DNA from: an uncultured archaeon | GTDB taxonomy: Archaea; Nanohalarchaeota; Nanosalinia; Nanosalinales; Nanoanaerosalinaceae | Assembly (NCBI GenBank): GCA_964633675.1 | Contig: CAZWHR010000001.1 | Span: 1 to 47,421 of the forward strand | Length of the DNA stretch: 47,421 nucleotides | Reading direction: 5' to 3' | Shown here: positions 43,294-47,421 of the stretch, piece by piece | Position numbering within the stretch: the stretch's first letter is position 1 | Layout of the letters: the number at the start of each line of letters is the position of its first letter | The notes under the pieces: generated by a model | Told to the model about the DNA's origin: nothing | Database searches by the model: none | Seen by the model: only the letters and a program-made list of their open reading frames with translations | Position numbers and translations under genes: made by a program

Positions 43294-43587
43294 ATGGCAA
43301 AGAAATCTCAAGGAACAAGGAACAAGTCAAGAAGAAAGATGGCAAAGAGTAGCCGTGAGAAGACAACGGTCTCAAGCCATTTCACAGAGTTTGACAAGGG
43401 AGAAAACGCAGTTATAGACCTAGATCCAGCGGTACATGAGGGGCTACCACATCCCAGGTTCCACGGTAGGACTGCCAAGGTCTTGGGAAAGAGAGGTAAG
43501 TCCTATATAGTAGAGATAGATGATGGTGGTAGAAAGAAGGAGTTTCCTGCACATCCCGCCCATTTGAAGCCTGCTGAAGAGAATTAG
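43294..43587 (+). CDS. rpl21e: 50S ribosomal protein L21e
   Basis: MAKKSQGTRNKSR...HPRFHGRTAKVLGKRGKSYIVEI; 97 aa. Confidence 0.9.
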   Translation: MAKKSQGTRNKSRRKMAKSSREKTTVSSHFTEFDKGENAVIDLDPAVHEGLPHPRFHGRTAKVLGKRGKSYIVEIDDGGRKKEFPAHPAHLKPAEEN

Positions 43588-43611: not shown

Positions 43612-43941
43612 ATGAAGATTATAGAATCAAATGACATAAGTCCTGTGGAAGTCCTTGAAACTCTTGAAGAGGAAGAGGAGGGCTCTTTAGAACCTATACA
43701 GAAGACTATCCTTGAACATCTACGGCAGAACACAAAAATTGAGTCTGAGGAAGCCTTTGAGGAGTTGAAGGATGAGCTTGAAGATGTTGAATCTCTTAAA
43801 GAGAAGCATATATACAAGATACTTGAGATTTTGCCGGAACATCCAAAAGAGGTGGAAGCTCTCTTCTCAAAGGACAGAATTAGAATGGACGATTCTGAGA
43901 GAGAGAAGATAGCGGAAATTTGTTCTTCGTACAGCACATAG
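43612..43941 (+). CDS. rpoF: DNA-directed RNA polymerase subunit Rpo4 (F)
   Basis: 109-aa acidic helical protein in the conserved archaeal position between L21e and DUF655. HLRQ... and KHIYKILEILPEHPKEV segments. Confidence 0.7.
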   Translation: MKIIESNDISPVEVLETLEEEEEGSLEPIQKTILEHLRQNTKIESEEAFEELKDELEDVESLKEKHIYKILEILPEHPKEVEALFSKDRIRMDDSEREKIAEICSSYST

Positions 43942-43961: not shown

Positions 43962-44528
43962 ATGAAAGATAACCACGCAGTTGTACTTGACTTTCTGGAG
44001 CATGGAAAACCTGGAGGAAGCGACCAGCCTCTGGCGCAGATACTAGGTAAGAACCACTTTAATCTTCTGGAGGTTGTTGCAAGACCTAATGTACGTCTTA
44101 AGACTGGTGATGAAGTATATATAGGAGACGGCGAGAGAGAGGATGTCAAGTTTATAAAGGGTAAAATAACTTCGGACGAGCTTACTGGAAACGCTGAATC
44201 GGAGCTGGAGTACGTTCTGGATGACCTGATTGAGGAGAAGGAGGACAAGTTCGTGGAGTTCTTCAACAATGCCGAGCCCATAACAACAAGGCAGCACGCC
44301 CTGGAACTGCTTCCCTCGGTGGGGAAGAAGCATATGTGGGAGATAGTTGAGGAGAGGGAAGGGGGAGACTTCGAAAGCTTCGAGAATATTCGAGACAGGG
44401 TTGACCTACTTCCGGATCCGAGAAAGCTCATAAAGAAGAGGCTGGAGAAGGAGCTTGGAGGAGGATGCAAGAGATACCTGTTTGTACCCCCACCAAGATC
44501 CGAAGACAAGAATAAATACATCGGCTAG
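43962..44528 (+). CDS. DUF655 family (COG1491) predicted RNA-binding protein
   Basis: AVVLDFLEHGKP...PLAQILGKNHFNLLEVV...GDEVYIG... and a C-terminal helix-hairpin-helix-like LELLPSVGKKHMWEIVEER. Conserved neighbourhood with rpoF and ksgA. Confidence 0.75.
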   Translation: MKDNHAVVLDFLEHGKPGGSDQPLAQILGKNHFNLLEVVARPNVRLKTGDEVYIGDGEREDVKFIKGKITSDELTGNAESELEYVLDDLIEEKEDKFVEFFNNAEPITTRQHALELLPSVGKKHMWEIVEEREGGDFESFENIRDRVDLLPDPRKLIKKRLEKELGGGCKRYLFVPPPRSEDKNKYIG

Positions 44529-44554: not shown

Positions 44555-45367
44555 ATGATAGATCAGATTCTACAGAGATACGGTTTCGAGCCTGACAAGC
44601 TTAAAGGCCAGCATTTCCTCGACAGCGAGGATATTCTTGACACTGAAGTTGAAGAGGCCGATCTGGAAGGTTCTGAAACTGTTCTAGAGGTAGGGGGAGG
44701 TATAGGAAACCTTACGCGCAAAATAGCCGGAGAGGCAGGCGATGTACATACGGTAGAGAAGGATCCAAGACTTGTTGAGGTTCTGGAAGAAGAGCTCTCT
44801 GATTTTGATAATGTCCATATCCACAACAAGGATATACTGGACATGGAACTCCCTGATTTCGATAAGTGCATATCAAACCCTCCATACCAGATCTCCGGGA
44901 AGATAGTGGAGCTACTTGGGACAAGGGAGAAGATAAGCATCTTGACATTCCAGGACAAGTTCGCGGAGAGGCTGGTTGCCGCGCCCGGATCCAGCGAATA
45001 TTCAAGGATTTCTGTGATAGCCCAGTTCAGTTTTCTCCCTGTATTTCTCCAGGAAGTGCCTGCTGAGAGCTTTGTGCCTCCACCAGAGGTGGATTCTGCG
45101 GTTGTGAAGATGTATCCCAGGAACAAGAACTTCGAGGCCACGAGCAGAGAAGGCTTCAAGAGGACTGTCAGAGGACTGTTCACGAACAGGAGGAAGAAGG
45201 CAAGGAACGCTTTTGTGGACTCTCGCCACATACTGGAAATTTCAAAGGAAAGAGCAAAAAAGCTCCGAGACAAAATACCATTCAGCGAGGAAAGAGTTAT
45301 AGACCTAGAGGTTAAAGAGCTTGTAGAGATATCCAACTACCTGGAGGAAGAGATATATGGTAGATAG
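44555..45367 (+). CDS. rsmA: 16S rRNA (adenine1518/1519-N6)-dimethyltransferase KsgA/Dim1
   Basis: KGQHFL, VLEVGGGIGNLT, ISNPPYQIS. Confidence 0.9.
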   Translation: MIDQILQRYGFEPDKLKGQHFLDSEDILDTEVEEADLEGSETVLEVGGGIGNLTRKIAGEAGDVHTVEKDPRLVEVLEEELSDFDNVHIHNKDILDMELPDFDKCISNPPYQISGKIVELLGTREKISILTFQDKFAERLVAAPGSSEYSRISVIAQFSFLPVFLQEVPAESFVPPPEVDSAVVKMYPRNKNFEATSREGFKRTVRGLFTNRRKKARNAFVDSRHILEISKERAKKLRDKIPFSEERVIDLEVKELVEISNYLEEEIYGR

Positions 45368-45500
45368 ATGCAAACTATGCGGGGATAAGATAGAAGAGGA
45401 GGAGCATAAGGAGAAGAAAGTATGCCACTCCTGCCTGCACAAGGGGTTCCTGAAACTCACAGAAGTTATAGGTAGGATGAAAGACTCTGAAGATGGTTGA
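45357..45500 (+). CDS. 47-aa zinc-ribbon mini-protein (C-x2-C-x14-C-x2-C)
   Basis: Not in the ORF track. GGAGG at 45343-45347, 9 nt upstream of the ATG at 45357. My translation is MVDRCKLCGDKIEEEEHKEKKVCHSCLHKGFLKLTEVIGRMKDSEDG. It overlaps the ksgA end by 11 nt and the next gene's start by 8 nt. Confidence 0.45.
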   Translation: MVDRCKLCGDKIEEEEHKEKKVCHSCLHKGFLKLTEVIGRMKDSEDG

Positions 45501-46092
45501 TAAAGTATTCTGGAAAGATCTGGAGTTCCATGTGCCTGAAGGGGTCTATGTTCCCCGTGAAGACTCATATCTATCGGCGGAGGTCCTTGTAGATCAGAGC
45601 CTCGAATCAAAAAAGGTCCTAGATGTGGGCACGGGTTCAGGTTTTCTTGCAGTGATAGCCTCCTCTCTAGGAGCTGAAGTTGAAGCCTTGGATATAAACC
45701 CGAAGGCTGTGGAAGTAGCCAGGGAGAACGCCAGGAGGAACAGCTGTTCTCTGGAGGCTTTCAGAAGCGATTTATTCGAGGAGGTAACCGGCTCCTATGA
45801 TATAATTACCTTTAACGCGCCCTACCTACCTGAGGAGAAGGAAGAAGGCGGTGATTATGAGAATATGGCCTGGGAGGGGGGTGAAGAAGGCAGAGAGACC
45901 ATAGACAGATTTATAGAATCGGCAGGTGATTTTCTCAATGAGGGAGGATACATACTCCTCACACAGATAGAGTCTAACGGTGTCGACAGGACCCTGTCGG
46001 ATTTCGAGGACAGAGACCTGACTGCCGAAGTTGTCGGTAGGAAGAAGATACCCTGGCAGGAGCTGGTTGTTGTAAAGGCTTCGAAAATTTAA
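45493..46092 (+). CDS. HemK/PrmC-related (Mtq2-like) class I SAM-dependent methyltransferase
   Basis: VLDVGTGSGFLAV (motif I) and ITFNAPYLP (NPPY-type motif IV); 199 aa. Confidence 0.8.
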   Translation: MVDKVFWKDLEFHVPEGVYVPREDSYLSAEVLVDQSLESKKVLDVGTGSGFLAVIASSLGAEVEALDINPKAVEVARENARRNSCSLEAFRSDLFEEVTGSYDIITFNAPYLPEEKEEGGDYENMAWEGGEEGRETIDRFIESAGDFLNEGGYILLTQIESNGVDRTLSDFEDRDLTAEVVGRKKIPWQELVVVKASKI

Positions 46093-46109: not shown

Positions 46110-47421
46110 ATGAACGGTATGAGGATAAACTATAAGATCCTACTGCTAACGGTATTACTGCTGGCATTTTTCACTATCCCTGTTGCGGCCAATCACGGTG
46201 ATGGATGGCAGCTTAATGAGTCTTGGATGGCTCCAATAAATATTACGTCAGGTTCTACCGGAGTTGTAGTTATTCAGTTGCATAATGAATTTCATGAACC
46301 TGTCAATCCGGAAGACTGTGATTCTATGGAGACGCAGTACGTATATCCTCCAGGAAACAGTGAGGGACAAGGGGATTTGGAGTATATAAATAGCTCTCCT
46401 GGCTTCTATGCCGGCCAGTTCCAAGCAGTGGAAGGTGAAAATGAGATCAATATTGATGTATTTAATGTAGGGGGCTGTGACTTCCCAGGCGGAAAAATAG
46501 ACACTTCGCTTACAGGTTTGAACACCAGCGGAAATCTTACAGCTAATATTGTAAATACCACTGACAATCCTTTCCTTGAAGATCAAGAGTATAACCTGTG
46601 GCTTGAGGTCTTACAGCAGGGAGATTTTGAAGACGGCGTTGATGCTAACTGGACTATATACAACTGGAAAGGCGGTCGCGAGGACTATGACGAGCTAAGT
46701 AAGGGCGCAGGCGAGTTTTACGAGGATGAAAATGGGATTTTAATGCCTGAGGTCGATCTTCCTGAGGTAGAGGCCGGGAAGTACTTCTTAGTATTCCGAG
46801 CAGAAAAAGACGAGTCGGGACTGGACTATTACTATCCTTTTGGAGGAACCGCTAAAATCATAGAGGTTGCCAAGGACTTGAAGTTTGAGTTTGAGACGAT
46901 AGACCTGTTCAGGGCAATGGGTCGCGATGGATGGTGTGCGGAAAGTAACAAGAAAACCCTAGGTAGATGCCAAAAAGGCGCAAAGATACAGGTACGTCTC
47001 AGAGAGAACAGGAGTAGCGCCAGTGAAGTGGAAGGAGGGGTGAGCGGGAATGGGAAAAACCTCACACAGAAAGGACTGAATTTTACAGAGATATCTGAGG
47101 GTTTGTGGATAGCAAACTTTACAATCCCTACGGATCTTGATACCTCTAAATTTGGCAAAGAACTTGATATAAATGTGATAGGCAGAAATGATCTTTCTAA
47201 ATTTGAAAAAACTGACTCTGTGGACTTAAGCGTGTTTGAGGTAGATTCCTTGACTAGAGAATATGCTTTCCAGGGTGGAGAGATAGAGATATTGTTTGGG
47301 GCGGGGTATGAGTTCATCGATAAATTCCTGTCGAAAGATAAGATGGATACTGTATCGCTGGAGATACATCATCCTAACGGTACGACATGGGATATATGGA
47401 AGAATAAAGACGTGAGTAATC
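46110..47421 (+). CDS. secreted protein, unknown function (3' end beyond the window)
   Basis: I translated all 437 codons from the ATG at 46110 to the window end with no stop. Signal peptide MNGMRINYKILLLTVLLLAFFTIPVAANH. Many N-x-S/T sequons. Absent from the track because no stop lies in the window. Confidence 0.75.
   Translation, partial: MNGMRINYKILLLTVLLLAFFTIPVAANHGDGWQLNESWMAPINITSGSTGVVVIQLHNEFHEPVNPEDCDSMETQYVYPPGNSEGQGDLEYINSSPGFYAGQFQAVEGENEINIDVFNVGGCDFPGGKIDTSLTGLNTSGNLTANIVNTTDNPFLEDQEYNLWLEVLQQGDFEDGVDANWTIYNWKGGREDYDELSKGAGEFYEDENGILMPEVDLPEVEAGKYFLVFRAEKDESGLDYYYPFGGTAKIIEVAKDLKFEFETIDLFRAMGRDGWCAESNKKTLGRCQKGAKIQVRLRENRSSASEVEGGVSGNGKNLTQKGLNFTEISEGLWIANFTIPTDLDTSKFGKELDINVIGRNDLSKFEKTDSVDLSVFEVDSLTREYAFQGGEIEILFGAGYEFIDKFLSKDKMDTVSLEIHHPNGTTWDIWKNKDVSN

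Follow-up and report, generated by a model that had tools for sequence, protein, structure and literature searches.

Trm112 (PF03966/COG2835) is a small activator of the Mtq2, Bud23, Trm9, and Trm11 methyltransferases. KsgA is the universal 16S rRNA dimethylase, and it is not known to be a Trm112 client. The Trm112 fold consists of a small N-terminal helix and a four-stranded antiparallel β-sheet, which forms a β-zipper onto strand β3 of the methyltransferase (PMC6144793). The Haloferax Trm112 is without the cysteines, and the protein is absent altogether from the Thermococcales and Methanobacteriales, where its client methyltransferases act alone (PMC6144793). Orphan Cys4 microproteins to which no function can be given are also numerous in archaea (PMC12949519), and the zinc-finger μ-protein families HVO_2753 and HVO_0758 of Haloferax combine a length of less than 70 aa with two CxxC pairs. 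Other points of comparison are the N-terminal zinc finger of the archaeal and eukaryotic ribosome-biogenesis factor NMD3 (PF04981/COG1499) and that of ClpX. The N-terminal C4 zinc-binding domain of ClpX is a treble-clef module for dimerization and adaptor binding, that is, for protein interaction.

The present study concerns a gene for a 47-aa Cys4 microprotein (here, the mini-gene and the mini-protein) that lies between ksgA and a gene for a class I methyltransferase of the HemK2/Mtq2 family (here, Mtq2-like) in the window, the whole stretch of 47,421 nt of nanohaloarchaeal DNA that was analyzed. Like Trm112, the mini-protein is very small and carries a putative Cys4 zinc knuckle of the kind often found in Trm112, and its gene is flanked by those of two translation-related class I methyltransferases, of which one is of the Mtq2 type that Trm112 serves. 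It differs in that its structural model consists of a knuckle and one long helix, and in the conserved linkage of its gene to ksgA. With HVO_2753 and HVO_0758 it shares the small size, the two CxxC pairs, and the halophilic archaeal setting, but it has one metal site rather than two and, in addition, a conserved helix and a CLHxGF motif. The ClpX zinc finger has the same succession of C-x2-C-G, a hydrophobic residue before a second C-x2-C, and a helix; in contrast, the mini-protein stands alone, its loop is shorter and acidic, and no ClpX structures were recovered with it by Foldseek. The NMD3 zinc finger shares the pattern CxxCG ... LCxDC. Membership in the NMD3 family was nevertheless rejected, because the NMD3 domain spans about 230 aa and has two N-terminal Cys4 clusters, as against 47 aa and one cluster.

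A Cys4 Gene Overlapping ksgA and an Mtq2-like Gene

The mini-gene occupies positions 45357–45500 of the forward strand and is present once in its genome. It encodes a CxxCG-x13-CxxC-L-H-x-G-F motif followed by an amphipathic helix, the cysteine pattern being C5xxC8-x14-C23xxC26 with codons at 45369, 45378, 45423, and 45432. The first putative metal knuckle is C5-K-L-C8 with G9 next to it (45369–45380, forward strand), and the second ligand pair is C23-H-S-C26 (45423–45434, forward strand), which lies at the N terminus of the predicted helix. A GGAGG Shine-Dalgarno-like site is found at 45343–45347 on the same strand, 9 nt before the ATG and within the last ksgA codons; it overlies the codons for the conserved LEE/LED at the KsgA C terminus and is therefore partly constrained by coding.

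On its upstream side the mini-gene is flanked by ksgA/dim1 for the 16S rRNA adenine dimethyltransferase (44555–45367, forward strand; PF00398, 3.4e-45; TIGR00755, 204.6 bits), and downstream by the gene for the 199-aa Mtq2-like enzyme (45493–46092, forward strand; TIGR00537 “HemK2/MTQ2 family,” 157.3 bits; NF011529, 190.5 bits), identities that agree with those given to the two neighbors by the earlier, sequence-only reading of this DNA. The start of the mini-gene overlaps the end of ksgA, whose stop codon ends at 45367, by 11 nt, and its stop overlaps the Mtq2-like start at 45493 by 8 nt; if the mini-ORF is discounted, a gap of 125 nt is left between the ksgA stop and the Mtq2-like start. The ORF, its own GGAGG, the two overlaps, and the 125-nt span had all been reported in that reading, and remeasurement returned the same values. 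Further upstream the same strand carries Pfam matches to L21e (43294–43587), RpoF/Rpb4 (43612–43941), and DUF655 (43962–44528), so that the cluster reads Pus10, L21e, RpoF/Rpb4, DUF655, KsgA, mini-ORF, and Mtq2-like.

Two features of the downstream side were recorded in their own right. Next after the Mtq2-like gene comes a gene for a large protein with a signal peptide, in the window (46110–47421), at locus L044 (2937–3767), and on contig L117 (2953–5691), its place beside the translation cluster being conserved in the source genome, a genome of another family (f5), and L117. In addition, motif IV, the motif with which these methyltransferases bind the substrate glutamine or adenine, reads N-A-P-Y in the Mtq2-like protein (about 45793–45804) instead of the canonical N-P-P-Y. 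NAPY occurs in every genome of the source family (L082–L090) and NPPY is kept in the families f3, f4, and f5 and on L117, making NAPY a family-wide change.

Distribution, Conservation, and Selection

A profile search covered all 70 genomes of the phylum, the source genome G000 included, which fall into five families (f1 to f5). G000 not counted, the mini-gene was found in nine of nine genomes of the source family f1, in the single f2 genome, and in six of eight f4 genomes, and was absent from the single f5 genome (G013) and from all 50 genomes of f3. Outside f3, then, 16 of the 19 genomes besides G000 carry an intact ORF with invariant cysteines, the very conservation that the sequence-only reading had proposed to look for. 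A search of 41 related genomes likewise returned intact homologs in all nine other f1 genomes and in six of the eight from f4. The two negative f4 genomes also lacked matches to ksgA and to the Mtq2-like gene, and probably the locus as a whole is missing from these assemblies. A further carrier is L117, a distant contig of low GC content (30%) whose KsgA is nearest to that of the f5 genome (61% identity) and is in this sense f5-like.

Beyond these genomes the family is small. A database search returned 16 proteins, and every named one was a “hypothetical protein” from metagenome-assembled genomes of Candidatus Nanohaloarchaeota or Nanohaloarchaea; when 1.84 billion representatives were searched exhaustively with an HMM, about 20 further small proteins of the same design came to light and no more. 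Judged by these searches, the family is restricted to the Nanohaloarchaeota, and both the family and its linkage to ksgA appear to be undescribed in the searchable literature. Weak tblastn “homologs” in f3 were rejected as orthologs; they are RpoP beside L37Ae, or the N termini of NMD3. A different Cys4 ORF of 53–61 aa (MRCEACGALVEAEE...CQDCSAKL) is found in genomes G002 and G006 (L078, 1483–1644, forward strand; L079, 1447–1632, reverse strand), where it adjoins a gene for an Lrp/AsnC-type regulator. Its match to the mini-protein profile is weak (E about 1e-4), and it is possibly a distant paralog.

Family members range from 45 to 70 aa, with 14–19 residues between the knuckles. C5, C8, G9, C23, C26, and G30 are invariant in the family alignment, and the cysteines remain so when the proteins are grouped at 50% identity into roughly 30 clusters. 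The C-x-x-C-L-H-x-G-F motif and the ensuing amphipathic helix are conserved, and the loop between the two cysteine pairs is rich in Glu/Asp in every member. In the congeneric genomes G007 and G008 the mini-genes differ by 19 synonymous changes and one nonsynonymous change, and dN/dS for other pairs is about 0.07–0.6. To judge from the conserved residues and these substitution patterns, the mini-ORF is a real gene under purifying selection.

Predicted Fold and Sequence Likenesses

An AlphaFold2 model of the mini-protein, built from the 16-sequence alignment, has a mean pLDDT of 78 (moderate confidence). It shows a short knuckle at C5/C8 that leads through a brief turn into a single long helix at residues 24–45, and otherwise isolated bridge residues only; C23 and C26 lie in the first helical turn. 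The classical zinc ribbon is built of two β-hairpin zinc knuckles that contribute one CxxC each. Because the second CxxC of the mini-protein sits at the N terminus of a helix, its modeled fold is treble-clef-like and not that of a classical two-hairpin ribbon. Of the “genuine small zinc-ribbon protein” of the sequence-only reading, therefore, the first half held up, namely a real Cys4 gene with an intact ORF and dN/dS well below 1, but the ribbon gave way to a treble-clef-like model.

Neither structure nor sequence placed the mini-protein in a described family. Foldseek found no PDB match to the model below an E value of 0.78, and no Trm112 chain stood among the 50 best matches listed. Pfam searches with the 16 members yielded subthreshold generic zinc-finger matches only, among the best 25 of 37 matched families. 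The most recurrent specific signal was the ClpX C4 zinc finger (PF06689), seen in 5 of the 16 members with a best E value of 2.8e-4 and always below the 27-bit cut-off; conversely, ClpX-type zinc-finger proteins match the family profile weakly, at about 5e-5. A sequence search of the PDB returned knuckle motifs only, such as Thermotoga maritima bL28 (E = 0.0016, over stretches of 10 and 12 residues) and rubredoxins, with matches to the archaeal μ-proteins at chance level (E about 1). The zinc form of bL28 was rejected as a relative, with about 36 residues between its knuckles as against 14–19 in the mini-protein family.

Family members differ widely in net charge, between −11 and +12. A basic, RNA-binding character was on this account rejected as a family trait, and a conserved RNA-binding surface is unlikely. 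The features that stay constant, namely the metal site, the acidic loop, and a hydrophobic stripe along the helix, suggest a module for protein–protein contact.

Conserved Linkage to ksgA

Eighteen mini-gene-bearing loci have both ksgA and the mini-gene on one contig. In 16 of these, the mini-gene starts somewhere between 11 nt inside the end of ksgA and 30 nt past it. At all f1 loci its start overlaps the ksgA stop, mostly by 4 nt (ATGA type), by 7 nt in G001, and by 11 nt in G000, whereas at the f2 locus, at three f4 loci, and on L117 it begins 6–30 nt after ksgA. A (G)GAGG(A) stands 7–11 nt before the start in most f1 relatives, two relatives of genus g5 having GGAGA only. The two carrier loci in which more than 30 nt separate the genes have inserts of 578 nt (L042, genome G025) and 814 nt (L048, genome G027). 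In L042 the insert harbors an ORF for 97 aa (903–1196), in which membrane helices are predicted. Genome G012 has a natural in-frame arrangement of KsgA, stop codon, and mini-protein. The order L21e-RpoF-DUF655-KsgA-mini recurs in relatives and on L117, distant as that contig is.

Without exception, the Mtq2-like gene shares the strand of ksgA and lies 0–4.6 kb downstream of it. The mini-gene directly adjoins it only in the source genus (G000 and G001) and on L117, where the mini-gene stop and the Mtq2-like start overlap by 8 nt in the two genomes and by 17 nt on the contig. The other f1 genomes have the order ksgA-mini-pyrG-Mtq2; in f4, other genes occupy the 3–4.6 kb that separate the mini-gene from Mtq2; f3 has ksgA-pyrG-Mtq2 without the mini-gene; and in the f5 genome, also without it, Mtq2 is the next gene after ksgA, at a distance of 57 nt. 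The neighborhood is conserved as a whole, but the conserved link of the mini-gene is with ksgA, every rearrangement having kept the two together. As to pyrG, most of the phylum has this CTP synthase gene upstream of the Mtq2-like gene and after ksgA or the mini-gene (L035–L062), whereas the source genus, the f5 genome, and L117 lack it at that site, either through insertion in the former or through excision in the latter.

Fifty f3 genomes and G013 have ksgA but no mini-gene, and the Mtq2-like gene is kept in 49 of the 50 f3 genomes, all without the mini-gene, and in 66 of the 70 genomes overall. Because both persist in f3, neither KsgA nor the Mtq2-like enzyme strictly needs the mini-protein. 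When KsgA proteins of carriers were aligned with those of noncarriers, family-level differences alone were seen, with no indel or missing segment, and the idea that the mini-protein is a split-off piece of KsgA was rejected. A fusion (Rosetta-stone) link was also sought and rejected, the larger profile matches being unrelated multi-zinc-finger proteins of the LIM, DZR, DA1, and ClpX types.

Discussion

The mini-protein is a plausible partner of a flanking methyltransferase, and the neighbor to which its gene is tied is ksgA. If the order ksgA-mini-Mtq2 is ancestral, gene order alone would fit a partner of KsgA and a partner of Mtq2 alike, and cannot separate the two. The reading that we prefer, to which we give a probability of roughly 45%, is that of a lineage-specific zinc microprotein that acts with KsgA, as an accessory or adaptor, in maturation of the small ribosomal subunit. 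Zinc binding, KsgA binding, and a role in ribosome biogenesis are what we infer for it. In such a model, the CxxCG knuckle, the acidic loop, and the second CxxC, which caps the long amphipathic helix, would form a metal-binding protein, the metal most likely being zinc. The mini-gene would be transcribed together with the archaeal L21e-RpoF-DUF655-KsgA translation cluster, and in the source family its translation would be coupled to that of ksgA through the start/stop overlaps of 4–11 nt. The protein could then assist KsgA on the maturing small subunit, for example with its helix docked onto KsgA or onto the pre-30S particle. It would be a dispensable aid, since one large family has lost the gene. 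Against this reading stand the KsgA alignment, in which carriers lack no segment for the mini-protein to supply, the fifty f3 genomes and G013 that retain KsgA without it, and the wide range of net charge, which speaks against a conserved surface for RNA.

A possible but more doubtful reading is that the mini-protein is an independent zinc-finger microprotein, a regulator or a module for binding proteins or nucleic acids, whose gene hitchhikes in a highly expressed operon. The wealth of orphan archaeal Cys4 microproteins agrees with such a role, as do the loss of the gene with no visible change in KsgA or the Mtq2-like protein, the variable charge, and similarities that are solely of the generic zinc-finger kind. 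However, four family-level lineages, whose GC content runs from about 30% up to 48% or more, have all kept the gene right after ksgA, with start and stop codons that overlap. A gene without a functional link would not usually hold its place in this way, and we favor an independent role less for this reason.

It is unlikely that the mini-protein is a functional analog of Trm112, which would bind and activate or stabilize the HemK2/Mtq2-like release-factor glutamine methyltransferase and would perhaps be an adaptor shared with KsgA. The sequence-only reading had drawn attention to Trm112, and taken as homology that comparison failed. The mini-ORF has no PF03966 match (hmmscan, E ≤ 1), the 16 members have none among the best 25 of 37 matched families (hmmscan, E ≤ 10), and the model has neither the helix plus four-stranded sheet of Trm112 nor any β-sheet with which to form its β-zipper; homology is ruled out on these two counts. 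Analogy could still draw on the stop/start overlaps with the Mtq2-like gene in the source genus and on L117, on the constant strand and nearness of that gene downstream of ksgA, and on the lack of a recognizable Trm112 in 41 nanohaloarchaeal genomes (G000–G040). In these, a search for stand-alone proteins matching PF03966 gave no credible candidate, the best matches falling in frames that are large or of a generic zinc-finger type; in the source genome, the weak matches correspond to the zinc ribbon of TFB and to a 124-aa protein of generic type with several zinc ribbons. The same search was positive in the controls Methanocaldococcus jannaschii, Haloferax volcanii, Sulfolobus acidocaldarius, and Methanosarcina acetivorans. 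The lack of Trm112 needs no substitute, however, because the clients of the Thermococcales and Methanobacteriales work alone, and the nanohaloarchaeal Mtq2-like enzyme presumably does so too. Moreover, pyrG or other genes part the mini-gene from the Mtq2-like gene in most carriers, and the pairing is not obligate, the Mtq2-like gene being present without the mini-gene in G013 and in 49 of the 50 f3 genomes, the latter without a detectable Trm112 as well. A bolder form of the idea, in which the mini-protein is a structurally unrelated replacement for Trm112, a shared adaptor whose amphipathic helix docks on both KsgA and the Mtq2-like enzyme and stabilizes the two in the high-salt cytoplasm, seems slightly less likely again.

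Very unlikely, in our view, is that the mini-protein arose when a copy of the first NMD3 zinc finger became detached; NMD3 is a 60S-type biogenesis factor, and on this reading the mini-protein would act on the large subunit. One 47-aa member is labeled “NMD protein affecting ribosome stability” in IMG, some of the weak tblastn matches of the mini-protein in f3 fall on NMD3 N termini, and hhalign gives a probability of 72%. Yet that alignment covers 14 columns only, the CxxCG knuckle; none of the members has a Pfam NMD3 match among the matches listed; and 38 of 41 genomes, the source genome included, encode a separate full-length NMD3. In the source genome, a run of N (masked sequence or a scaffold gap) in the NMD3 gene (contig C8, 10347–10838, reverse strand) removes the residues that lie between the first zinc finger and about profile position 130. 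Finally, a chance ORF in a noncoding spacer, or a purely regulatory upstream ORF, as shortness and the lack of a database family might suggest, can be dismissed almost entirely in view of the cysteines that are invariant over roughly 30 clusters and the 19 synonymous changes against a single nonsynonymous one in one pair of genes.

Archaea abound in small zinc-finger proteins, most of which have no assigned function. The kind of object described here is thus well known, and the present result, as it stands, is no surprise but a well-supported annotation for an orphan family that had not been described. What the mini-gene offers is an unusually clean genomic clue, its apparent coupling to ksgA inside a conserved translation cluster. 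The mini-protein might be a nonhomologous replacement for Trm112. If it is a cofactor of KsgA or of Mtq2, it would be a lineage-specific addition to the maturation of the ribosome or of release factors in reduced, symbiotic archaea.
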